Source: a virus
Direction: 5' to 3' (one strand)
Virus record (IMG/VR): IMGVR_UViG_3300045988_079078
Length of the DNA: 39,895 nucleotides
Numbering within the stretch: position 1 is the first letter of the stretch; each line of letters begins with the position of its first letter. The notes under the pieces were generated by a model, which searched no databases, was not told where the DNA came from, and saw nothing but the letters and a program-made list of their open reading frames with translations. A program made the position numbers and the translations under genes. Below are positions 5,129 to 38,273 of this stretch, in pieces.

Positions 5129-6214
5129 ATGAAAAGAACAAATACCGCAAAATGGATTGAATCTGCCCAGCGCTGGCAGATAAACGTGCAAAAAGACGGC
5201 GTGCGCAAAACCTTTACCAGCGCCAAACCGGGACGCACAGGCCAGCGGGAAGCGAACGCCAAGGCTGACGCATGGCTTGAAAAAGGCATTCAGAACCGCA
5301 AACAGACTGTTTCCGAAGCGTATGTCCAATACATGGCCCGCCAGATGAAGATTTCGTCCGAGGGGAACTGGAAGCCCTTGCAGGGGCGCTATAACAAGTG
5401 GATTGCCCCGCGCATCGGGGATATGCGCTTGACTTCCCTTACAGAGCAGGCAGTGCAGGACATATTGGATGATGCTTTTGCAGCAGGCCGCAGCAAGAAA
5501 ACAATCAAAAACATTGCGGGAGACCTGCGCAGCTTTTTCAAGTTCTGCCGCCGCTCTGGATGGACAACGTTTGATCCAGAGGAACTGCACGTTCCAGAGG
5601 GTGCGCGTTTCAAAGAGCGAACCATTTTACAGCCGACAGACATTATAACGCTTTTGAACATAGATACCACCATAAGCAGGGGGCACAGGGTATTTGACAA
5701 GTATATACATTATTATAGATTAGCTGTTTTTACAGGGATGCGCCCGGGTGAGCTTCTTGGCCTTGAGTGGGGAGACGTTGATGGTGGCGTTGCTCGGATA
5801 AAGCGCTCCGTAAACATATACGGAAAAGAATCAAGAGGAAAGAATGAAAACGCCCCTCGCGCAGTTATCCTTTCGGCTCGTTCGCTGGAAGAACTGAACG
5901 CGCAAAAAGAGTTGACTGGAATGTGTCAGCGCGTATTTCCGCAGGTAGAAGAACGGAACATTCGCCGCGCTTGGCAAAGATACTGCGCCGCAAACGGTAT
6001 TACATGCTGCACTCTGTACGAGTTGCGCCATACGTTTGTAAGCATTGCCGCCAATCTGCCAACAGGGCAGCTAAAACAGGTGATAGGGCACAGCCAGAAT
6101 ATGGATACATACGGCGTGTACGCGCATGCCATAAACGGACAGGATAAAGTAATAGCCGAGAACATAGAGGGCATCTTTGATGCAGCCATAGCAGCAGGAA
6201 AAAGTACACAGTGA
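5129..6214 (+). CDS. int: Tyrosine recombinase / phage integrase
   Basis: The C-terminal catalytic region has LYELRHTFVS and GHSQNMDTYGVYAH. The protein is 361 aa, has the RBS AAAGGAG and lies next to the att-like site. Confidence 0.9.
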   Translation: MKRTNTAKWIESAQRWQINVQKDGVRKTFTSAKPGRTGQREANAKADAWLEKGIQNRKQTVSEAYVQYMARQMKISSEGNWKPLQGRYNKWIAPRIGDMRLTSLTEQAVQDILDDAFAAGRSKKTIKNIAGDLRSFFKFCRRSGWTTFDPEELHVPEGARFKERTILQPTDIITLLNIDTTISRGHRVFDKYIHYYRLAVFTGMRPGELLGLEWGDVDGGVARIKRSVNIYGKESRGKNENAPRAVILSARSLEELNAQKELTGMCQRVFPQVEERNIRRAWQRYCAANGITCCTLYELRHTFVSIAANLPTGQLKQVIGHSQNMDTYGVYAHAINGQDKVIAENIEGIFDAAIAAGKSTQ

Positions 6215-8061: not shown

Positions 8062-8820
8062 TTAGCAGGCGCAGCCGTTGCAGGTGCCGCAATTCCCATA
8101 CTGATACGGTGCGGGAACAGGGAAAGCAGGAACAGGGCGGGGGTTGTAGTAAGCAAGCTGCCCACTCATATAGGCTTTCAGCGTTTCATTCTGCGCAGCC
8201 TGACTTGCGGCAAGCTGTGCGGCAAAAATCTGCTGGTTCTGCTCGGCAATCTTGGCATCCTTTGCTTCAATCCGCTGTGCAGTAAGCGCATCAAGCACCG
8301 CACGCGCATTGGCGTTCTGGTTCTCAATGATGTCTCGAGTGCCGTTCTGAATGGTCTGGCGCGTGTCGCAAGCCTGCGTAGCAAGGTTGTAGTTAACGCC
8401 CTGAATCGCTTCGCGGGTTTCGCAGCAGCAATTTGCCTGCTGCATCTGCATCGCGTTAAGCTGCTGCATAAATGCGGCCTGCTGATTGGCGCGGCTGATT
8501 TCAGCCGACATAAAGCCCTGCTGCATAGCGTTCTGCACGCCGTTGACAAGCTGTGCCTGAGCATAGAAGCCGTCACACAGGCCGTTGTTTACGTTGTCAA
8601 TCTTGCGTTCGATGTTGGCAAAGTCACTGGTAAGGACGTATCCATCCATAACGCCAGCACCATTGCCGTTGTTGCCGCCCCAACCGTTGCGGCCCCAGCC
8701 AAACAGGAACAGGACGATAATCCAAATCCAGTCCTGCCCCCACATGCCCATGCCGCCATTGTAATTATTGGCGGGCTGTACCGGCATTGTCATAACAGTG
8801 CCGTCCGAAGATAAGCTCAT
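8062..8820 (-). CDS. Membrane-anchored Q/N-rich, Cys-rich protein (252 aa)
   Basis: RBS is GAAGGGAG. It has a G/W-rich TM region (GMWGQDWIWIIVLFLFGWGRNGWGGNNGNG), conserved-looking Cys motifs (GLCDGFY, NCCCETRE, ATQACDTR) and the C-terminus GNCGTCNGCAC. Confidence 0.7.
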   Translation of the reverse strand: MSLSSDGTVMTMPVQPANNYNGGMGMWGQDWIWIIVLFLFGWGRNGWGGNNGNGAGVMDGYVLTSDFANIERKIDNVNNGLCDGFYAQAQLVNGVQNAMQQGFMSAEISRANQQAAFMQQLNAMQMQQANCCCETREAIQGVNYNLATQACDTRQTIQNGTRDIIENQNANARAVLDALTAQRIEAKDAKIAEQNQQIFAAQLAASQAAQNETLKAYMSGQLAYYNPRPVPAFPVPAPYQYGNCGTCNGCAC

Positions 8821-26788: not shown

Positions 26789-27813
26789 TTTTCAATCTTT
26801 CCAGCGTTTTGCGTAGCTCCTTCCTTCCAGCTTTCCCACTGCGCATAGGTCATATCCGATACAAGTATGCTCTTTCCCGTTTCCGGGTCGCGTGCACGGC
26901 GCAGTGGGTTCGGGGTTTTTGGCACATCGTCAAGCGCTGCAATTAGAGTACATCGGCAGTTATACACCAAATAGCCCGGTGCGCTTGCATCGCCGGGAAA
27001 CATAATCTCATAGCCGTCTACTTTAAACGGCTTGTCATTGTCAACTGTCTGACCATCCAGCATCGCGTGCGCGTGTCTGGTGCGGTTGTCCAGCGTTGCA
27101 AGCCATTGCTTTTTCAGCTTTATGCCCATGTCTTGTGCGGCGCGGTAAGTATCTAGCCTTCCCGCGTTCTGCGCTGCTGTAACCGCCGTTCTAGCGGTTC
27201 GGATAGCGCTTGTGCGGTTCATATCCTGCATACGGCTTTGTAAATCGTTGGCGATTTTCGGTATGCTTTTGCCTTGCAGGATGGAGCTTGTCACGCTGGC
27301 GGTAATCTGTTGCTTGCCGTATTTCATGTCAATTCCGCGCCGCAATGCCCGCTTTGGCGGGTAGTACGGCATCAAGTCTGGCTGTTCAACAATCAGACGT
27401 TTAACGGTCTGCTCATCCCACAGCGTAAAATCTGCTTTGTCGGAAACCTGCTCGATTTTGTAAGCGGCATAATTGCGATTCAAGCTGTAAATGCCCGGCG
27501 TGGCGTCATTGACATAGGCCACAGCCGTTGCATTAGCATCGGTGTACCTTTCTGCCACTTTATCGCGCAGGGCTTCAAAACGCTTTCCGCGCCCTATCTG
27601 CGCAAGCCGCCACTGCTTGTATTGCTGCTCTGTGATTTCGCCTGCATCGAGCTTTTCTTTCATGGCTGCATCACGCTTCTCGAATTGCTCAAAATAGGCT
27701 TTCACCGTGTCGGTCAGTTCGTCAGCAGCTTCTTTGTACAGCTTTGCGATGCGCTGTTCCAGCTTTGCAAGCTCCTTGTCGGTCAGTTTGTGGGCGTAAT
27801 CAGGTTTCGCCAT
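26785..27813 (-). CDS. Minor head / head morphogenesis protein (SPP1 gp7 / Mu F-like)
   Basis: It follows the portal gene and carries the LVYNCRCTLIA motif. Confidence 0.75.
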   Translation of the reverse strand: MAKPDYAHKLTDKELAKLEQRIAKLYKEAADELTDTVKAYFEQFEKRDAAMKEKLDAGEITEQQYKQWRLAQIGRGKRFEALRDKVAERYTDANATAVAYVNDATPGIYSLNRNYAAYKIEQVSDKADFTLWDEQTVKRLIVEQPDLMPYYPPKRALRRGIDMKYGKQQITASVTSSILQGKSIPKIANDLQSRMQDMNRTSAIRTARTAVTAAQNAGRLDTYRAAQDMGIKLKKQWLATLDNRTRHAHAMLDGQTVDNDKPFKVDGYEIMFPGDASAPGYLVYNCRCTLIAALDDVPKTPNPLRRARDPETGKSILVSDMTYAQWESWKEGATQNAGKIEK

Positions 27814-29203
27814 TGCCGTTCAGTCCTTCTCCCGGCTGGTTCTGCGGCTCATTAGGCTGCGGATTGTTATTCCTACGGTCAAGTTCCTCTGCCGCCTTTC
27901 GCTTCAAAAGCTCTTTTACTTCTTCAGGCGTCAGCCACGGCAGGTGGTTAAGCACGGCCTCGTCGTCAAGATACTCTGCCGCCGTCATAACCATCTGCGT
28001 CTCTTCAGTCTGGTTTGCAATGCGGTTCCACTTGAAAGACGGTTCATCTTCTACGCCAACGATTTTTAGCAGGTTTGCAATGAAGCCGCGGATGCAATAC
28101 TCAAAATCGCCGCATTTATCGTCCTGCTGCTGGTACGACAGTCGAATTGCTGTGGCCGTCATGTTGCCAGATAGTGCCTTTGCAGGATTCATAAGCATTG
28201 AGTTCTCGTACATATCATCTTTCAAGTAGTCAAGCAGCATTTTGTTGGCATCAACGGGCACCGCAAGAGTGTTTGCCTGCGCATCTACCCCGCGATCAAG
28301 AACAACAGCGTGCAGCTGCTTCATTCGATTGACAAAATTCACCAAATCAGCATCTTCCATGCCGCCGGTGCCTTTCAGCACCCAGTAAAAAGCGCTTGTT
28401 TCGTCAACGTTATTTGCCATACCCGACATGATAAAGTCATAGCAATCAATGCTTGGGCGGATACCAATTAGCTCCGATTCCTGCAAATCGTTGGCATACA
28501 TGGGGATAATCGGAAAACCCGGATAATTCTCACCTATAACATCAACGATGCCGTCTGCTTCTGTTCGCTTGATTTGTCGCTTGTATGGATGCTTTTCCTG
28601 CAAAACCATCATTTTCTCTTTATCGCGCTGGATGTACTCTGTCAAACCGTCTGGCTCGTACAGCGTCCAGCGCTTTGTGCCATCCTCAAAACTCCAATAC
28701 CGCACACCTGCCCGCAGCGCTCGTGTATCCTGGTCATACAGCGGGGCAAATCCTGGGCTGTTTGGAGTGTCTGCAAAGCTAAATACTTCCAGATGGTCAT
28801 AATTCCAGAAGCCAAAAGCAACGCCGTCAACACAAGCCTTTTTTGCTAAATCTTGCAATCTGTTGTCAAACTGCGTCCCCAACTTATCCTTTGTATCGGT
28901 TTTCCCAAACGTCACGCCATTGGAAAGCACATATTGCACCTGCTGCAACACAAACTGCCGAAAAAATCCGTGTGTCAGCTTGTAATTACTCGACCACACA
29001 TCTTTTACCGCTTCACCAGTTGCCGTGCGCAGCATTTTTTGATAGTTCAGAATCGTAATGTTGCGTTTTGCGTAATATGCTTCTGCATCCCGTGCTACTC
29101 TGTATCTTTCACAGCCCTTGTGCTCTTGTACAAGCTCTTTCACAAATTCCTGGCGGGCACTTTCATCGTTTTGAAGTTTTTCTAAATTTTGGTATACCTT
29201 CAT
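27800..29203 (-). CDS. Portal protein
   Basis: It is 467 aa, lies directly after TerL and has an acidic C-terminus. Confidence 0.85.
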   Translation of the reverse strand: MKVYQNLEKLQNDESARQEFVKELVQEHKGCERYRVARDAEAYYAKRNITILNYQKMLRTATGEAVKDVWSSNYKLTHGFFRQFVLQQVQYVLSNGVTFGKTDTKDKLGTQFDNRLQDLAKKACVDGVAFGFWNYDHLEVFSFADTPNSPGFAPLYDQDTRALRAGVRYWSFEDGTKRWTLYEPDGLTEYIQRDKEKMMVLQEKHPYKRQIKRTEADGIVDVIGENYPGFPIIPMYANDLQESELIGIRPSIDCYDFIMSGMANNVDETSAFYWVLKGTGGMEDADLVNFVNRMKQLHAVVLDRGVDAQANTLAVPVDANKMLLDYLKDDMYENSMLMNPAKALSGNMTATAIRLSYQQQDDKCGDFEYCIRGFIANLLKIVGVEDEPSFKWNRIANQTEETQMVMTAAEYLDDEAVLNHLPWLTPEEVKELLKRKAAEELDRRNNNPQPNEPQNQPGEGLNGNGET

Positions 29204-29213
29204 ACTCGCCCCT

Positions 29214-30437
29214 TTAAATCAGCCAATTTACTGTTTGTGTTGCAGATTTTCTCCAAATTCCTGCCGTCTGAATAACGTACCTCAAAGCATCCATAGCATG
29301 ATCATTTTCTTTGATAACTTTATCTTCCGGGGCGGTTTCGTCCCAGCGGTAAAGCCCAAATTCCTGTATCGTGCGCTTGCAACAGTCGTTTACCAGTAAC
29401 TTTTTATCCGCAATACACTGCGCCACATGCTGGATTCCCTCAATAACGGTATTGTCAGCATCCCAAATTTTGAATTTATGTTCTTTTTCAACCAGAGCAA
29501 TAAAAGAAGCAGCAGACGGGTCAACGATTAATCGTTTAATCGTCAAATCTCCCGCCAGTTGCTTTAAATCCACGTAATATTCAGCGTCAGTTTTTTGCTG
29601 ATTCGTTTCTCTTCCGCTGTGGTAGAACTCTTTTACAACGTACCAAACGCCGTCACAATGCCCAACTAACAACATTGCAGTAGGGTTCAAAATGCCGTAG
29701 TCCATGCCGATATAGTAAGTATCATATTTTCTCTGCACTGTTGGTACAACGTTATCAAACATCGGGTACACAAGGCCATCTGCAACAACCCACAAGCCGC
29801 GAATATAGCGGTCGTAAAACACGCCGCTATACATATTTTTGTACCGTTCAAGCGTCTTTTGGCTCAGGCTTGGATTGTCCGTCATTGCAAACTGCAAATA
29901 CAACGCATTTCTCTCATCCCGGCGCATAATCCAATTTTTGTAGAACCAATGTTGCGGACTGCCTGGGTTGCAACTAAACCATATTTTCGCGCCGTCAACA
30001 CTGCATCGGGCAAGAGCCTGGTTTACAAAAGATTCCGGCATCAACGCCACTTCGTCCAGCAACACGCCAGCCAATGTGCGTCCTTGAATCAGCATAAAAG
30101 AGGATTCATCTTTGCCGCCGAAAACCTCAAAATAGTTGCGTTTGCCGTCTTTGCTGATAACTTCAAGCACCTTGTCGGCACGTCTCCATTTGAGCGTATA
30201 TATCTCTTTTGCAAGAGTCATGGAAATAAACGGCACAATAATATTTTTTTGTGCGCTATCAACGGTTTTACCACAAATCCCAAACCGTTGATTGTCAAAA
30301 CGCTCCATTGCCCATTTTACGAACGCCCACGTCTCGATAGACGTTTTGCCAGAGCGAACAGCCCCATCACAAATTATTGCGTCATAATTACTATATGGGA
30401 ACGCAAGTATCTTTTTTTGCTTATCACTGATCGCCAT
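29214..30437 (-). CDS. terL: Terminase large subunit
   Basis: Walker A is DGAVRSGKT. The protein is 407 aa and overlaps TerS. Confidence 0.9.
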   Translation of the reverse strand: MAISDKQKKILAFPYSNYDAIICDGAVRSGKTSIETWAFVKWAMERFDNQRFGICGKTVDSAQKNIIVPFISMTLAKEIYTLKWRRADKVLEVISKDGKRNYFEVFGGKDESSFMLIQGRTLAGVLLDEVALMPESFVNQALARCSVDGAKIWFSCNPGSPQHWFYKNWIMRRDERNALYLQFAMTDNPSLSQKTLERYKNMYSGVFYDRYIRGLWVVADGLVYPMFDNVVPTVQRKYDTYYIGMDYGILNPTAMLLVGHCDGVWYVVKEFYHSGRETNQQKTDAEYYVDLKQLAGDLTIKRLIVDPSAASFIALVEKEHKFKIWDADNTVIEGIQHVAQCIADKKLLVNDCCKRTIQEFGLYRWDETAPEDKVIKENDHAMDALRYVIQTAGIWRKSATQTVNWLI

Positions 30438-30807
30438 CGCTCTTTAACGACCTCGCCAGTTCTCTTAGGCTTGCGCTCAGCCCATCATCTTGCACTGCTC
30501 CCTCTGCGATTGTAGTCTCCACTTGATCTTTCTGCCCCAGATACTGCTTGCCTAGCCAAATTGCCATATTTGCGTTCTTTTCAGCAAGCCTCCACTGGTG
30601 CCTGCGCAGCGATATTTTCCCCGTGCTGCGCTTTTCCTTGAATACCTCGGAAAAAGTTTTGTTATATGTCTTTTTGCACCATGAATTAAGTGTTTTATCC
30701 GTTATGCCGAACCAACCACAGATTTCTTCAAGGGTGCATTGCAATCCGCATAGGCTTTCAAACTGTTTTTGGTCTATGTTCTTTTTGGGTCTACCTGTGC
30801 GAGCCAT
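30424..30807 (-). CDS. terS: Terminase small subunit
   Basis: The N-terminal HTH-like region is MARTGRPKKNIDQKQFESLCGLQCTLEEICGWFGITDKTLNSW. The call is supported by position. Confidence 0.75.
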   Translation of the reverse strand: MARTGRPKKNIDQKQFESLCGLQCTLEEICGWFGITDKTLNSWCKKTYNKTFSEVFKEKRSTGKISLRRHQWRLAEKNANMAIWLGKQYLGQKDQVETTIAEGAVQDDGLSASLRELARSLKSDGDQ

Positions 30808-30811
30808 TCTC

Positions 30812-31759
30812 TCACCCTTTCACCCGCTTTTCTTTGATTCTGCAAGAGCATTTAGGCTCTTTCGCCCATTTTTTGAAGATGAATTGCATTTGGGTATCAA
30901 TCTTCTCTTTATCTTTCACAAGAACGCCAACCTTAAACGGTTTCAGAATGTGCTTGAAATAGGCTGCTCCTGCTTCCGCTTGCGATGTGATGCAGTTGCT
31001 TTTGCTTCTCATTCCGCAGCTGTAAATATTGCCATACAGTTTGCGCATATGCTCGCCACGTTTTACACCAGCTTCGGCATATGCTTTTCGGCATCCAGTC
31101 AGGTCTTTGTTTTGCGCTTGCCCTGTCTTGCTATACCGCAAAGGTGCAACCTGAACAGATGGGACGCCCATTTGCTTTAGTTTCAAGCGAAACTCGACGT
31201 CGTCCTCAAAGTCACCTTGGAATAAATCAGGGCATCTGTCAACATCCAATGCAAAGCAGCTATATACAAATCTCTCCGACAAATAATCATCCGCAGGAGC
31301 AGCTACGCCGCATAGCGTACAGCCTGACATTGCAGCATTAGTGCATTCCAGCACAGTTACAAGCGTATCTACGAAATCATCAAGCATTTCATCTCTGCTT
31401 TCGACGCGGTATCGCTTGATTGTCTTGTCGTCGATTTTTCGCGTGTACCCGATTTCTAAAAATGTTATGTTATCGTCCAACTGGATAAGATATCTGTACC
31501 CATGTTCACGTGCGTACTTGATCGCATAGCTGCGGTTCATCGGGGCATACCACGCATTGTCGCTTGTCTTTGCAACGGACTTATACCATTCCTCATATTC
31601 TTTAGGAACGTTTACAATTTCCCAATCGGTGTCGTATCCCTCTGAATTGTTAGAAATGATGATATGCGGGTATACGGTTTTATTTTTCTCCGTCGGGCGC
31701 TGCTGTTTCGTTCCCGGACGTTTCCCCGATATCTCCACTATCAGTGTTTTCTCTTTCAT
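30812..31759 (-). CDS. GT-A (GT2-like) glycosyltransferase-fold protein with no TM segment
   Basis: NRSYAIKYAREHGYRYLIQLDDN fits the GT2 RN..A..G..fLD.DD pattern, and GDFEDDVEFRLKLKQMG fits the ED..l.lR...G pattern. The RBS GGGAGGG lies before ATG 31759. Confidence 0.5.
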   Translation of the reverse strand: MKEKTLIVEISGKRPGTKQQRPTEKNKTVYPHIIISNNSEGYDTDWEIVNVPKEYEEWYKSVAKTSDNAWYAPMNRSYAIKYAREHGYRYLIQLDDNITFLEIGYTRKIDDKTIKRYRVESRDEMLDDFVDTLVTVLECTNAAMSGCTLCGVAAPADDYLSERFVYSCFALDVDRCPDLFQGDFEDDVEFRLKLKQMGVPSVQVAPLRYSKTGQAQNKDLTGCRKAYAEAGVKRGEHMRKLYGNIYSCGMRSKSNCITSQAEAGAAYFKHILKPFKVGVLVKDKEKIDTQMQFIFKKWAKEPKCSCRIKEKRVKG

Positions 31760-32270
31760 CCTGCATACCCTCCCAATATTTTTGCAGGCGTTCCAGCTTT
31801 TCTTTGCTGTCACTTTTGAAAACAGCCTCGTACATTACGCCAAACTCGTTGTTTTCCACTGCTGCCTTGTCGCTTTCATCAAGGGTATTATCAAACAGCC
31901 CCCCCAATTCAAAGCCAGTAAACAGAGCGTCATCGTCAAACGCATCAAGTTCTTCCAGCTCTTGCAGCAGCTTCTTGTTATCCCAGATTGCGACATCTGA
32001 AACCTTATTGTCAGCAAGCCGAAACGCCTTGATTTGCTCCGGCGTGAGGTCGTCCGCAATCACGCACGGAACCTCTTTCAGTTTCAGTTCCTGCGCTGCC
32101 TTATATCGCGTATGCCAGCATACAATTTCTCCGTCAGCCGCAATCACAATCGGAACTTTGAAACCATACGCTTCAATGCTTTTTGCGACTGCCGCTGCTG
32201 CCTTGTCATTGATTCTTGGGTTGTTTTCGTATGGGTGGATTTCTTCCAGCGATTTCATCACAACTTGCAT
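31680..32270 (-). CDS. ParB N-terminal-domain protein with an acidic tail (no methyltransferase domain)
   Basis: RBS is GGAGG. It has EEIHPYENNPRINDK...KVPIVIAADGEIVCWHTRYKAA...FRLADNKVSD. Confidence 0.75.
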   Translation of the reverse strand: MQVVMKSLEEIHPYENNPRINDKAAAAVAKSIEAYGFKVPIVIAADGEIVCWHTRYKAAQELKLKEVPCVIADDLTPEQIKAFRLADNKVSDVAIWDNKKLLQELEELDAFDDDALFTGFELGGLFDNTLDESDKAAVENNEFGVMYEAVFKSDSKEKLERLQKYWEGMQDERENTDSGDIGETSGNETAAPDGEK

Positions 32271-32290: not shown

Positions 32291-32320
32291 ACAAAAAGCC
32301 CACACAATTTGTGTAGGCTT
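32291..32320 (-). terminator. Intrinsic terminator 17 nt upstream of the ParB RBS
   Basis: The minus-strand RNA reads AAGCCTACACA-AAT-TGTGTGGGCTT followed by TTTGTGTT. Confidence 0.65.
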
Positions 32321-32775: not shown

Positions 32776-33207
32776 TTAAAAGTGAACTGGAGTGCACAGA
32801 TTTTCAATTGCAGCGCGGTGTAATTTTTTTGCCCATCGCTCGGAAATATTTAGATTTATAGCAATCTTCCACCAATACGGTGTGCCGACAATATACCGTT
32901 CCCGCAAAACGTCCCGTTGCATTTGGTCTTGCACAGAGTTTATTGCGGTTTCAATTTCTTCCCTTTGCATCTCGGTGTCAATAATCTGCTTGTATAGAGC
33001 TTCTTGGCGCTCCATTATTCTGCAAACGGCATCCTCGATTTTATTTTTACCGCCGGCAGACACCACAACGGGGGATAATGCTTTAGTTGTCGCTGCTGCT
33101 CGTTCACGTTCGCTCTGTATCTGCTGGCGCAGCTGTCGTTCACAATTCCTGCTGCGTTGGTATCTCCACAGCCACGCTTTCTTTTGGTTGAATTCTTCTC
33201 TGGTCAT
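32776..33207 (-). CDS. Late-gene activator candidate (sigma-70 region-4 / ArpU-RinA-DUF1492-like)
   Basis: It is 143 aa. The C-terminal region LRERYIVGTPYWWKIAINLNISERWAKKLHRAAIENL is HTH-like. Its position upstream of the packaging genes is typical. Confidence 0.6.
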   Translation of the reverse strand: MTREEFNQKKAWLWRYQRSRNCERQLRQQIQSERERAAATTKALSPVVVSAGGKNKIEDAVCRIMERQEALYKQIIDTEMQREEIETAINSVQDQMQRDVLRERYIVGTPYWWKIAINLNISERWAKKLHRAAIENLCTPVHF

Positions 33208-33328: not shown

Positions 33329-33918
33329 GGGGTCACCTCCGGGGGTTTAGGGAGCGGCATCCAATGGGTGACGGCGGTCCCGTTAAATTTTCTTTCTTTT
33401 CCGTAGTGAAATATCGCTTGAAATCCATCTCCGATATTGCAAAAACACAATACATACTCGTCTTTTTCCGGCAGCCTGTCTTTAACGCTTATCCATTCAC
33501 TCATTTGCGGTCGCTCTGGCTCTTTCCCTACTTCCTTGCAGAAGTCCAAGTAATCATCTACGGCATTGCGGAACTCTTTCTCAATATTTTCGATTTCAAA
33601 CGCATGAAAATTTACCAAATCCTTGATGCCATCCAATGTTCCATGCCAGAGTTTATCGTCTTCATCATACTCTACCGTAGCAGTGTACCCGCGATAAGCA
33701 AGTTTTGGCTCTTTCATGTGATCCACGGTTCCGCGCATAATGTGCGCCGTAGACCGTATCGCGTCCGGGTTATCTGCCAATTTCTGCAACTCATTCAGGT
33801 CTTCAAGTATACATGTAATGCCGCATGTATTGCACTCTTTTGTTATGTCCGTACACATGCCACAGGCATCGCTGTATTTCGTGATTTTATCGCGGATTGC
33901 TTCTTGAAGTTGTGTCAT
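33325..33918 (-). CDS. HicB-like fold fused to a DUF551-like C-terminal domain
   Basis: The RBS GGAGG lies before ATG 33918. YRGYTATVEYDEDDKLWHGTLDGIKDLVNFHAFEIENIEKEFRNAVDDYLDFCKEVG is HicB-like, and WISVKDRLPEKDEYVL...THWMPLPKPP is DUF551-like. Confidence 0.55.
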   Translation of the reverse strand: MTQLQEAIRDKITKYSDACGMCTDITKECNTCGITCILEDLNELQKLADNPDAIRSTAHIMRGTVDHMKEPKLAYRGYTATVEYDEDDKLWHGTLDGIKDLVNFHAFEIENIEKEFRNAVDDYLDFCKEVGKEPERPQMSEWISVKDRLPEKDEYVLCFCNIGDGFQAIFHYGKERKFNGTAVTHWMPLPKPPEVTP

Positions 33919-34499
33919 TCCGATACCTCCTCTACATACGCCATGTTCTGGCGCAGATTGAGGGATTTCGGATTGAGAACACAAGCCGGGGCAACAGCGC
34001 CGCAGTTGCACGCACCGTAGTTGTACAGCAGACAACCCGCGTTCACAGTGCGAACGATGCTCGATCCTCCCGCGTCGGAATCCTTATCTCCGCAACGCAA
34101 AGGTGTGGCAGTCCAAATCAAGCTGTCGTAGTGCGGGATGTAGTCACGGTACTTGCGGTATTCGTCACAAGTTAGGATAAAAACAAGGTCTTCCACAGTA
34201 CCATAGTTGCAGTCGCCATTATCTGCCACTAGGTCAACCTCGTGGAAAATAAGATTATCGATGCCGATAACTTTAGCCAAACAAAGCACTTGTTTGCGAA
34301 TCGCGCTGGTACGGTAATTATTCCAATTACCATTTCCGTCAGCGTACTGCTCATTCGGGCAGAACTTTGCGTCTTCTTTCCACGGCTTTTCCATTATGGC
34401 AAGCACGCCGCCGTCAGGGTGGTTCGGGTCAAGGCAGACCCACTCGTAATTCTTGAACATAAAGTGTTCGCCGGGGAGTAAAGTTGTGATGTTAGTCAT
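33915..34499 (-). CDS. Hypothetical protein (194 aa; DUF6273-like by recollection)
   Basis: The RBS GGAGGTG lies before ATG 34499. The C-terminus is Cys-rich. Confidence 0.5.
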   Translation of the reverse strand: MTNITTLLPGEHFMFKNYEWVCLDPNHPDGGVLAIMEKPWKEDAKFCPNEQYADGNGNWNNYRTSAIRKQVLCLAKVIGIDNLIFHEVDLVADNGDCNYGTVEDLVFILTCDEYRKYRDYIPHYDSLIWTATPLRCGDKDSDAGGSSIVRTVNAGCLLYNYGACNCGAVAPACVLNPKSLNLRQNMAYVEEVSE

Positions 34500-35046
34500 T
34501 GTTGGGCACCTCCGTGAGCCAGTAGTCTTTTGCGCAGGTTCCACATTTAATTAAATAGTTATCGTCTGTGCAGCATTTAGAATCTATATCACACGGACGA
34601 ATCGCAAGAACTCCGTTACTGTCTAGTTTTGCGTTTGGGAACCGCTTCAAAAACTCACTCTGGCGGGTCTTGACTGGGTGGTCTTTCGCCCATTGCTCAA
34701 CTTTTGAAATTGTTTCCTCAATGCTTTTAACTGAATCGTCATCTGGCCAAATCATGCACAAGTCCCCTCTACAAGCAAGGTATTTCTTACAGCCTTGATC
34801 TATCATCTCAGCGTGACGGCTATTAAGAAACGCGCCAATCTCAACGCTTGCGTTTTCGATTCTTTCCTTAAAGTCGGGCCATTCTGGCGGATTCTCTGTC
34901 CCATCAAACGCAATCGTCAAGCGCTTTTCATTTTCCTGCAGCAATTGCTTTGCCGATTCAAGGCTTGAAATGGCATCGTTCAGCTTGTCAATTGTCATTC
35001 GCACTTCGGCTCTTGCGTAAATGATCTGAAATTTATCATCGCTCAT
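34492..35046 (-). CDS. Hypothetical protein (184 aa)
   Basis: The RBS GAGGTGGAA lies before ATG 35046. Confidence 0.55.
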   Translation of the reverse strand: MSDDKFQIIYARAEVRMTIDKLNDAISSLESAKQLLQENEKRLTIAFDGTENPPEWPDFKERIENASVEIGAFLNSRHAEMIDQGCKKYLACRGDLCMIWPDDDSVKSIEETISKVEQWAKDHPVKTRQSEFLKRFPNAKLDSNGVLAIRPCDIDSKCCTDDNYLIKCGTCAKDYWLTEVPNND

Positions 35047-35136
35047 AATTTTCCACCTCGTTAAATCGCTGGTCATTTCCGTTAAATGCGATATGCAATT
35101 TGCCGGTGTTGCAATCGTCTGTTTCCTCTCTTTCTG

Positions 35137-35556
35137 TCAAAACGGCAAATCCTCGCCGTCCTCAATCTCTGCAAAATCGGCTGCGCTGCCGTTGGAGTAG
35201 CCGACTGTCGGCTTACCGCTAGTGCGCATGGCTCCGTCTGACTTACCGCAGAAGTTAGCGTTTTGCACAACCACCTCAATCGCGGTGCGGTTCTGGCCGT
35301 TCTTGTCCTGATACTGGCGGGACTGCAGGCGGCCGTCAACGGCAATCAGCGCACCCTTTCCGAAATACTTACAGATAAACTCTGCGGTCTTTTCCCATGC
35401 GGTGCAGGGAATCCAGTCTGTCTGGCTGTTGCCGTTGGCATCTTTTCGGCCCCGGTCGCAAGCGATGCGGAAGGTGCAGACTCTCTTGCCGGTAGTGGTC
35501 TGCCGCATTTCAGGGTCGCGGGCGAGCCGACCCATCACGGCAATGATATTCAGCAT
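35137..35556 (-). CDS. ssb: Single-stranded DNA-binding protein
   Basis: The OB-fold N-terminus is MLNIIAVMGRLARDPEMRQT...WIPCTAWEKTAEF. The acidic tail is EIEDGEDLPF. Confidence 0.9.
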   Translation of the reverse strand: MLNIIAVMGRLARDPEMRQTTTGKRVCTFRIACDRGRKDANGNSQTDWIPCTAWEKTAEFICKYFGKGALIAVDGRLQSRQYQDKNGQNRTAIEVVVQNANFCGKSDGAMRTSGKPTVGYSNGSAADFAEIEDGEDLPF

Positions 35557-37343: not shown

Positions 37344-38273
37344 TTACAGGCTGCTCAAATCAATTTGCATCGGCTCGGCAGTGGCGTTCGCATTTTCAAC
37401 CGCCTGTTCCGTCTGCTGCTGTTCAAGCTGCGGTGCAGGCTGTGCAGCAGATTCAAGGCGAACGTCCTTTGCAGATGCGACGCGCTCTGCAATCAACTGT
37501 CCATCGTTGTCATGCGTGATGGTATCATCGTGTTCAAGCGCGGTCTGCATATCTACGCTCATAATGCCCCAGCGGGAAATAAGCTGACGAAGCATGGTTT
37601 TCTTTGCCATATCATCGAAATTCTTGTACCAGAACGAGGAATACTTCCACATCTCGCTTTGCTGAACGTTTCCAGCCAGCAGATTTTCGTACCCTTTGCG
37701 GCTAAAAGCGGGGCTGTAAGTGTCTGCATGGGTCATCATCTTTTCTTTGCTCCAATACAGCACCTTGCGGAATCCGTTCAAATACTCAAAGTAGGCCATA
37801 TAGCCGATGGTCGGCAGGGCATCACGCACATCATCGTCCTCAATGAACTTGAACCGGGCTTTTCCTGTTTCTGGGTCTTTGCCCATGTACTCGCCCTGCT
37901 TGATGACCATAACATCGAGGTCTTTGTACTGCCCGCTGCGCAACGCCAACTGGATATAGCCCTTATAGCCAAGCACGAACTGCGCCGTCGTGGTCTGCTG
38001 GCGCTTGTTTTTGAACGGCACGAGATAATATTGCCCCAGCTGCGGGGAAGGGGAGAGCTTCAAGCTCTCGCCAAGCAGCGCACCGGCAAGAATCGTACCG
38101 GCGTCGCATTCCTGCAAGGCCGGATTCACAGCGACAGCGCTCGTGATGCTGGCGGTGAAACTGCGGGCGCGGTCAGGGTCGCGCAGCGTGTTATTGATTA
38201 GGTTCTGATAGCTCTGTGTCGTGATCGCAACGGAAAACTTCGGTTTCTGTGCCAACTGATTAGATGTCGTCAT
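37344..38273 (-). CDS. recT: RecT-family single-strand annealing recombinase
   Basis: The core FVLGYKGYIQLALRSGQYK is typical of RecT. The protein is 309 aa. Confidence 0.8.
   Translation of the reverse strand: MTTSNQLAQKPKFSVAITTQSYQNLINNTLRDPDRARSFTASITSAVAVNPALQECDAGTILAGALLGESLKLSPSPQLGQYYLVPFKNKRQQTTTAQFVLGYKGYIQLALRSGQYKDLDVMVIKQGEYMGKDPETGKARFKFIEDDDVRDALPTIGYMAYFEYLNGFRKVLYWSKEKMMTHADTYSPAFSRKGYENLLAGNVQQSEMWKYSSFWYKNFDDMAKKTMLRQLISRWGIMSVDMQTALEHDDTITHDNDGQLIAERVASAKDVRLESAAQPAPQLEQQQTEQAVENANATAEPMQIDLSSL

Follow-up and report, generated by a model that had tools for sequence, protein, structure and literature searches.

What does a phage glycosyltransferase modify when its gene is tied to that of a small ParB-like protein, directly next to the terminase genes? 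The question is raised by positions 30812-32270 of IMG/VR virus record IMGVR_UViG_3300045988_079078, where two overlapping minus-strand genes code for a ParB/Srx-fold protein of 196 amino acids (aa; 31680-32270) and a glycosyltransferase of 315 aa (30812-31759). The whole stretch of DNA that was analysed, 39,895 nt in length, is referred to below as the window; by its gene content, it is a temperate siphophage-like element. A first-pass annotation of the window had described a protein with a ParB N-terminal domain paired with a soluble GT-A glycosyltransferase in a place usually taken by a methyltransferase, and had proposed glycosylation of either phage DNA or the virion. Our analysis indicates that the pair forms a conserved, translationally coupled two-gene cassette. 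The function that we propose for it, a late-expressed, ParB-assisted DNA glycosylation module, is held tentatively, since we consider it close to, but short of, probable.

The transferase gene starts with an ATG at 31759 and ends with a stop codon at 30814-30812. The Pfam TAGT model (TET-associated glycosyltransferase, PF20691) matched residues 7-204 of its product with 45.2 bits (cut-off 27.5 bits, E=1.4e-11), and a precomputed PF20691 annotation was present on most homologues. A match to PHROG 842, beta-glucosyl-HMC-alpha-glucosyltransferase, was obtained at E=3.8e-14, while a sequence search of the PDB gave nothing significant and the PADLOC defence library contained no match. An AlphaFold2 (AF2) model built on 51 homologues (pLDDT 85.7, pTM 0.87) had the GT-A fold, with a single Rossmann-like domain. 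When the model was compared by Foldseek with the predicted viral structures in BFVD, the top matches were phage TAGT-domain proteins (best E=5e-21, TM 0.73-0.78), and the T-even-type beta-glucosyl-HMC-alpha-glucosyltransferase of Klebsiella phage PKO111 was matched as well. No transmembrane segment was found (the Kyte-Doolittle maximum over a 19-residue window was 1.19). The first-pass view of the partner as a soluble GT-A enzyme of 315 aa, related to phage DNA glycosyltransferases, thus held; its "GT2-like signatures" have to be reassigned, for the motifs cited are present and belong to the conserved set, but the family is TAGT, and no GT2 or Gtr Pfam match was obtained. The protein is a glycosyltransferase of the TAGT family with a GT-A fold, whose acceptor may be DNA.

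Conserved motifs of the transferase are N75-R76-S77, Q93, D95-D96-N97, and F184-E185-D186-D187. Of these residues, R76, D95-D96-N97, and E185-D186-D187 were invariant in the 51 homologues and persisted in actinophage members of the family at 24% identity. The resulting R...DD(N)...EDD pattern is the counterpart of the R...DDD...EDY/F motif defined by the New England Biolabs (NEB) group for the phage DNA GT-A enzymes that were tested and for trypanosome JGT (bioRxiv 10.1101/2023.12.21.572611), the third Asp of DDD being Asn throughout the subfamily studied here. The family alignment (51 sequences) contained 63 invariant columns, and the catalytic motifs of the window transferase are intact. The family is narrow, with 94 clusters at 50% identity among 1.84 billion representatives. 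Residues 1-205 form the catalytic core; the C-terminal extension, residues 206-315, lies outside of the Pfam domain, and these last 110 residues are strongly basic (pI 9.96, net charge +17).

The ParB gene starts with an ATG at 32270, after AAGGAGG, and ends with a stop codon at 31682-31680, so that the open reading frames (ORFs) and coordinates of the first-pass annotation were as described. The match of the 196-aa product to Pfam ParB_N was slightly below the gathering cut-off (25.4 versus 26.3 bits, E=1.5e-5), and PHROG 620, a family of small proteins named "ParB-like partition protein", was matched at E=3e-49. In a Foldseek search with the AF2 model, Noc (7nfu) was matched at E=4e-6, and the Myxococcus MxParB-CTPgammaS structure (7bnr) with an rmsd of 1.7 A over 92 columns. 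The Foldseek comparison that had been suggested for both proteins therefore placed one among TAGT/GT-A enzymes and the other with Noc and ParB-CTPase structures.

Profiles of DNA methyltransferases were also matched by the ParB protein, through their N-terminal parts. PHROG 498, "DNA methyltransferase", was matched at E=1e-37, the alignment reaching residue ~165 and involving the N-terminal half of the 633-position profile, and PADLOC MTase_II was matched at E=2.5e-27 by the N-terminal part of the profile alone. In tblastn, ParB domains of Streptococcus Javan prophages, where some of the genes are annotated "DNA modification methylase", shared 62-65% identity with the first ~97 residues. These matches bear out the statement that in many phages the domain is fused to an N6/N4 DNA methyltransferase. 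Such a fusion was ruled out for the window gene itself, since its product stops after 196 residues and the fusion profiles were matched N-terminally alone.

A nucleotide-binding ParB/Srx domain (residues 1-95) is followed by a conserved linker/C-terminal region (96-171) and a disordered acidic tail (172-196). The "acidic tail" said to stand in place of the methyltransferase is accurate for the last ~25 residues, which are a lineage-specific disordered extension; residues 96-171 are conserved and common to ParB-methyltransferase fusions. The protein as a whole has a pI of 4.4, and residues 96-196 carry a net charge of -19. No helix-turn-helix (HTH) DNA-binding domain was present in the AF2 model, where short helices or disorder were seen beyond residue ~110, and no ParA gene was found near the ParB gene in a Pfam scan of the window ORFs. 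A canonical chromosome or plasmid partition ParB was ruled out by the lack of an HTH, the lack of a nearby ParA, and the pI of 4.4.

The two genes overlap by 80 nt (31680-31759, minus strand), as first noted. The Shine-Dalgarno sequence of the transferase gene, GGGAGGG, lies inside ParB codons W-E-G, and the placement of both this sequence and the start codon within ParB coding sequence implies translational coupling. The upstream start is evidently genuine, because transferase residues E9, I10, S11, G12, R14, G16, R21, T23, and E24, which are encoded in the overlap, were invariant in the 51 homologues. In most relatives, ParB has 168-180 aa and the overlap is 8-25 nt; the long overlap is restricted to a clade whose ParB has a C-terminal extension of ~26 residues, and results from this extension. 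A programmed +1 frameshift at AAA-TAA, which would fuse ParB to the transferase, was considered and rejected: the transferase would lose its N-terminal strand (residues 1-26), which is invariant, and such a frameshift is also contradicted by the overlaps of just 8-25 nt in relatives.

A profile-guided scan of IMG/VR yielded 51 loci (individual relatives are referred to by L numbers below). In every locus with upstream sequence, an overlapping ParB gene on the same strand was found directly upstream of the transferase gene, except in Lactococcus phage KSY1, where the transferase homologue is located in the replication module. The co-occurrence check proposed earlier was thus strongly positive. 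The order ParB_N, TAGT, terS, terL, portal was found in 10/10 Pfam-annotated metagenomic neighbourhoods. The same pair, with an overlap of 23 nt, is present in Gordonia phage Lilbeanie (gp88/gp89) and Microbacterium phage DelaGarza (gp61/gp60), and the transferase homologue also matched Microbacterium phages Gingerbug and Lesiram. Matches in host genomes were to one Clostridia and one Lactobacillus metagenome-assembled genome (MAG). In a mirror-tree comparison, the correlation was r=0.94 for the transferase and ParB, versus r=0.81 for the transferase and terL; as evidence of interaction this was discarded, the difference being too weak to tell interaction from linkage.

In the window, terS (30424-30807, minus strand; PHROG terS families, E=5e-9) lies directly 3' of the transferase gene, and is followed by terL (29214-30437, minus strand; Pfam Terminase_6N, E=2e-10) and portal (27800-29203, minus strand) genes. 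This position immediately upstream of terS and terL had been recognized from the start, and it places the ParB-transferase cassette in the late, packaging operon. A putative late-gene regulator of the DUF1492 (ArpU/sigma-like) family (32776-33207, minus strand; Pfam DUF1492, E=2.5e-7) is encoded upstream of the ParB leader. No integrase was found in the Lilbeanie or DelaGarza genomes, and we therefore take these phages to be lytic, which argues against a role of the cassette in lysogenic conversion. The late-operon position, together with the missing transmembrane segment and the lack of GT2/Gtr matches, agrees with the initial opinion that the enzyme is not of the Gtr type.

The DNA glycosylation model draws on the family of the transferase, on a ParB module that is shared with methyltransferases, on the basic and acidic charges of the two partners, on the position in the packaging operon, and on the occurrence in lytic phages. 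According to this model, the TAGT-family GT-A enzyme would transfer a sugar from a nucleotide-sugar donor, and the ParB-fold protein would be its nucleoside triphosphate-binding partner, either activating the transferase or holding it on double-stranded phage DNA. Since ParB has no DNA-binding domain, contact with DNA would be supplied by the basic C-terminal region of the transferase. We infer that the two proteins interact physically. Parallels are offered by the ParB homologues that switch on phage thymine dioxygenases on double-stranded DNA, and by the fusion of this ParB module to DNA methyltransferases. As a self-contained, coupled cassette expressed with the packaging genes, the pair would glycosylate phage DNA after its replication, either just before packaging or while it proceeds, presumably evading host nucleases and so having an anti-restriction role.

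Several observations weigh against DNA as the acceptor. Neither a TET/JBP dioxygenase nor a ThyS-like hydroxymethylase was detected in the scanned window ORFs with Pfam and PHROGs, although very divergent members could escape these searches; with the same libraries, the scanned ORFs contained no C5-methyltransferase, nor a methyltransferase domain of any kind. Dioxygenase, hydroxymethylase, and C5-methyltransferase were likewise absent from the 10 Pfam-annotated neighbourhoods (+/-10 kb), and no such enzyme was found by Pfam or PHROGs among the larger hypothetical proteins of the complete Lilbeanie and DelaGarza genomes. A hidden dioxygenase was sought in the unannotated ORFs of the window and in larger ORFs of the tail region, and was rejected as a candidate, there being no TET_JBP or ThyS match in the window, Lilbeanie, or DelaGarza proteins scanned. 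With no acceptor-making enzyme detected, no known acceptor hydroxyl, either 5-hydroxymethylcytosine (5hmC) or 5-hydroxymethyluracil (5hmU), would be available on the DNA. To our knowledge, every case of phage DNA glycosylation explained so far goes back to a TET/JBP dioxygenase or a thymidylate-synthase homologue that makes a hydroxymethylpyrimidine, and we know of no sugar-nucleotide glycosyltransferase that glycosylates canonical DNA. In addition, no ParB-transferase fusion protein was found among the 94 representative clusters in a "Rosetta stone" check; longer transferase matches there were one tandem TAGT-TAGT protein and mis-called starts. Many phage 5mYOX enzymes (TET/JBP dioxygenases) are missed by the Pfam model (O'Toole 2026, PMC13229309). 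Contigs with a glycosyltransferase that lack both 5mYOX and ThyS were deemed "less likely" to be involved in DNA hypermodification (bioRxiv 10.1101/2023.12.21.572611). The hypermodification proposed by the first-pass annotation is therefore plausible by association, but is without known chemistry, as no enzyme that makes 5hmC or 5hmU was detected. A hydroxymethyl-independent variant, in which a ParB-switched TAGT enzyme would link the sugar to a canonical base itself (for example, to an exocyclic amine) or to another position in DNA, appears unlikely to us.

An acceptor-generating enzyme would not be required if the substrate were a protein. The transferase could act on virion or packaging proteins (capsid, tail, portal, terminase) or on a host protein, with ParB as a regulatory or scaffolding subunit; we regard this, too, as unlikely, although a case for it can be made. 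Virion glycosylation is known in actinophages, and the cassette is expressed late, alongside structural genes. Structural matches of the transferase model in the PDB were weaker than those to viral predictions and were to generic GT-A enzymes (ColGalT1, B4GALNT1, GnT-I, and alpha3GalT), the top ones being protein- or glycan-modifying enzymes such as ColGalT1. The TAGT family also includes GREB1, a protein O-GlcNAc transferase (PMC7968844), and hence membership in the family does not fix the acceptor. A protein substrate, however, would explain neither why the transferase is obligately paired with a ParB module known elsewhere from fusions with DNA methyltransferases nor why its C-terminal region is strongly basic. 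The cassette adjoins unrelated terL families, and terminase and capsid families next to it are unrelated in general; it also occurs in very different phages, so that no conserved protein acceptor is evident, and the KSY1 homologue resides in the replication module.

Genes that accompany the cassette in relatives argue for a real sugar-transferring, and sometimes glycan-extending, activity. A UDP-galactopyranose mutase (Glf) gene directly follows the transferase gene in L004-L006 and L036, and is located further downstream in the cluster in L037. A second TAGT gene is present in L037 and L043, a TagD-like cytidylyltransferase gene lies directly downstream of the cassette in L034, and the tandem fusion mentioned above belongs to the same set. 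In the Glf-carrying relatives, the donor is probably UDP-galactofuranose. Similar to this accessory set are two published subclasses of phage DNA sugar hypermodification clusters, "sequential GT" and "GT plus epimerase" (bioRxiv 10.1101/2023.12.21.572611). As a separate observation, the region 7861-11329 of L034 also encodes, directly upstream of the ParB-TAGT pair, a 280-aa radical-SAM protein and a 269-aa ADP-ribosyltransferase-exoenzyme-like protein; radical-SAM genes of the same family (f47) are found in L039, L040, and L042 as well.

Glf and TagD-like cytidylyltransferase also make typical cell-wall precursors, and the MAG matches point to Gram-positive hosts (Clostridia and Lactobacillus). 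The transferase might accordingly be imagined to glycosylate the cell envelope (teichoic acid or cell-wall polysaccharide) in the cytoplasm, like prophage TarP, leading to superinfection exclusion or altered adsorption; TarP was the top PDB match of related phage GT-A enzymes (bioRxiv 10.1101/2023.12.21.572611). TarP was not, however, among the best 50 PDB matches of the window transferase. The location of the cassette, in the late packaging operon and after a terminator-like hairpin, is not a moron or lysogeny position; the cassette is also present in integrase-less phages, and ParB is not known to take part in any such pathway. An envelope substrate is, in our estimate, quite unlikely.

One feature of the window copy calls for caution. 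In the GHTR motif of ParB (box II, the phosphate-binding G-x-x-R), H53, T54, and R55 are present, and W52 replaces a near-invariant Gly. Among the ParB ORFs where the motif was found, its first position was G in 50/52 and W in 2/52, the other W being in the unrelated locus L033. The W52 codon is TGG (32115-32117, minus strand), and homologues with 97% identity have Gly at this position. The W52 residue could be tolerated, could inactivate the protein, or could stem from a sequencing error; this copy of ParB may thus be impaired, which is a further point against a working DNA-modifying pair in the window. In addition, the ParB or the TAGT gene is split by a frameshift in IMG/VR relatives L009, L012, L019, L035, L046, and L054, which may be due either to prophage pseudogenisation or to errors of metagenomic assembly.

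The slot occupied by the cassette may also hold something else. In Streptococcus phage Javan464 (L061, 5001-6175), the same slot between DUF1492 and terS/terL holds a 172-aa ParB that is mis-annotated as a "DNA modification methylase". Its gene overlaps by 22 nt that of a P-loop NTPase of 225 aa, which is wrongly labelled as an ABC siderophore transporter, and an ASCH/DUF3850-like gene follows. This arrangement suggests that the small ParB could be a hub with exchangeable partners. Taken together with G52W and the frameshifted genes, it can also be read as a sign that the window cassette is decaying or no longer active, or that a ParB with a packaging or partition role is linked to the transferase incidentally. 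We consider either very unlikely. Both window ORFs are intact, a W at the same ParB position arose independently in L033, the 63 invariant transferase columns attest to strong conservation across the family, and pairing is strict in almost all loci, with frameshifts that may be assembly errors.

Several elements were found in the ParB leader. Between the DUF1492 gene and ParB, a D12-methyl RNA (Rfam RF02950; 32358-32421, minus strand) was matched with 93.2 bits versus a gathering score of 57 (E=7e-18). It occupies the same position in close relatives L010 and L017, and was not found in more distant cassette-bearing loci. Since it is confined to the window and close relatives, the RNA was rejected as a component of the cassette. 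The motif was reportedly named by Weinberg et al. in 2017 after the D12-class adenine methyltransferase genes that it precedes. Its presence fits the idea that the cassette may occupy a methyltransferase slot. A consensus scan revealed a terminator-like hairpin (32296-32320, minus strand), whose 11-bp stem precedes a T-rich run, after the D12-methyl RNA and 26 nt before the ParB start codon; the fold z-score of the leader was -3.07. Genes of tRNAs are located 0.1-1.9 kb upstream of ParB in L010, L012, L013, L017, L019, L020, L022, L029, L063, L065, and L069, and none is present in the window. The possibility that tRNA is the target was dismissed, because the identities of the upstream tRNAs are mixed (Trp, Met, Thr, Ser, Phe, and His), as expected of a tRNA hot spot with no specific link.

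Elsewhere in the window, genes of an integrase (5129-6214, plus strand), RecT (37344-38273, minus strand), and SSB (35137-35556, minus strand) were identified. Two adjacent minus-strand ORFs with a 53-nt overlap, 33915-34544 (209 aa) and 34492-35076 (194 aa), lie between a DUF551 gene and the SSB gene. No Pfam family was matched by either, and the sole match of the 209-aa ORF was to PHROG 9958 (function unknown). ORF 8062-8820 (minus strand), flanked by the lysis genes and the integrase region, encodes a Gln/Asn/Ala-rich protein of 252 aa with a Cys-rich C-terminus (CGTCNGCAC), whose sole match was to PHROG 16490 (function unknown).

A tightly conserved two-gene cassette that is found both in gut Firmicutes prophages and in the cultured actinophages Lilbeanie and DelaGarza, taken to be lytic, is of interest whichever substrate it has. 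If it modifies DNA, the cassette would define a new acceptor chemistry that dispenses with TET/JBP or ThyS-type enzymes, and the activator role of ParB would extend from dioxygenases to glycosyltransferases. Should direct glycosylation of canonical bases be true, this would be a chemistry undescribed for nucleotide-sugar glycosyltransferases, and the transferase would represent a second ParB-dependent enzyme class after thymine dioxygenases. DNA modification would also have consequences for restriction and CRISPR evasion, for enzyme tools, and for sequencing, which is biased against phage DNA that carries modifications. If the target is not DNA, the ParB module of phage DNA methyltransferase fusions would prove to be re-usable for non-DNA targets.

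The closest known systems are the 5mYOX (TET/JBP) clusters (Burke 2021, PMC8256090; bioRxiv 10.1101/2023.12.21.572611; PMC13229309). They share with the window the TAGT family and the R...DD...ED active-site pattern, as well as a small ParB that consists of a nucleotide-binding domain, a linker, and a short C-terminal region and has no DNA-binding domain. Terminase genes are often nearby in these clusters, as they are here, and some relatives of the cassette additionally encode sugar-nucleotide enzymes or a second glycosyltransferase. Phage 5mYOX enzymes are activated, specifically on double-stranded DNA, by ParB homologues with no DNA-binding domain (PMC13229309), and ParB was proposed to direct a DNA-modification apparatus during packaging (cited in PMC8256090). 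In the published 5mYOX systems, ParB partners the dioxygenase, and the glycosyltransferase-rich clade C2 is ParB-independent (O'Toole 2026, PMC13229309). The cassette differs from 5mYOX clusters in that ParB is coupled directly to the transferase, and in that none of a 5mYOX dioxygenase, a C5-methyltransferase, or a ThyS-like hydroxymethylase was detected with it.

Fusions of ParB to N6/N4 methyltransferases (PHROG 498; PMC12704722) contain a closely similar ParB module, with up to 65% identity over ~97 residues, and occupy the same slot between the DUF1492 late regulator and terS. In place of the SAM methyltransferase domain of these fusions, the cassette has a glycosyltransferase as its effector, encoded by a gene of its own and translationally coupled to ParB. 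Trypanosome base-J glucosyltransferase (JGT) and the T-even beta-glucosyl-HMC-alpha-glucosyltransferase belong to the same GT-A/TAGT structural family as the window transferase, and both act on DNA; they require a pre-existing hydroxymethyl or glucosyl acceptor there, and neither has a ParB partner. In the DpdA/DpdB system of 7-deazaguanine DNA modification, a ParB-like NTPase also partners a DNA-modifying transferase. DpdA, however, is a TGT-fold transglycosylase that exchanges the base, and thus an unrelated enzyme with different chemistry, from a bacterial system. Our literature search returned nothing specific on a characterised ParB-glycosyltransferase pair or on KSY1 DNA modification. 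Glycosyltransferases are not mentioned in the survey of the ParB-CTPase fold (PMC12704722), and the glycosyltransferase survey (bioRxiv 10.1101/2023.12.21.572611) refers to ParB-like neighbours in general terms only, tying ParB specifically to 5mYOX pathways. The strictly paired ParB-TAGT cassette with no detected dioxygenase is therefore new, though not categorically so, as related kinds of ParB-partnered and TAGT-based systems are already known.

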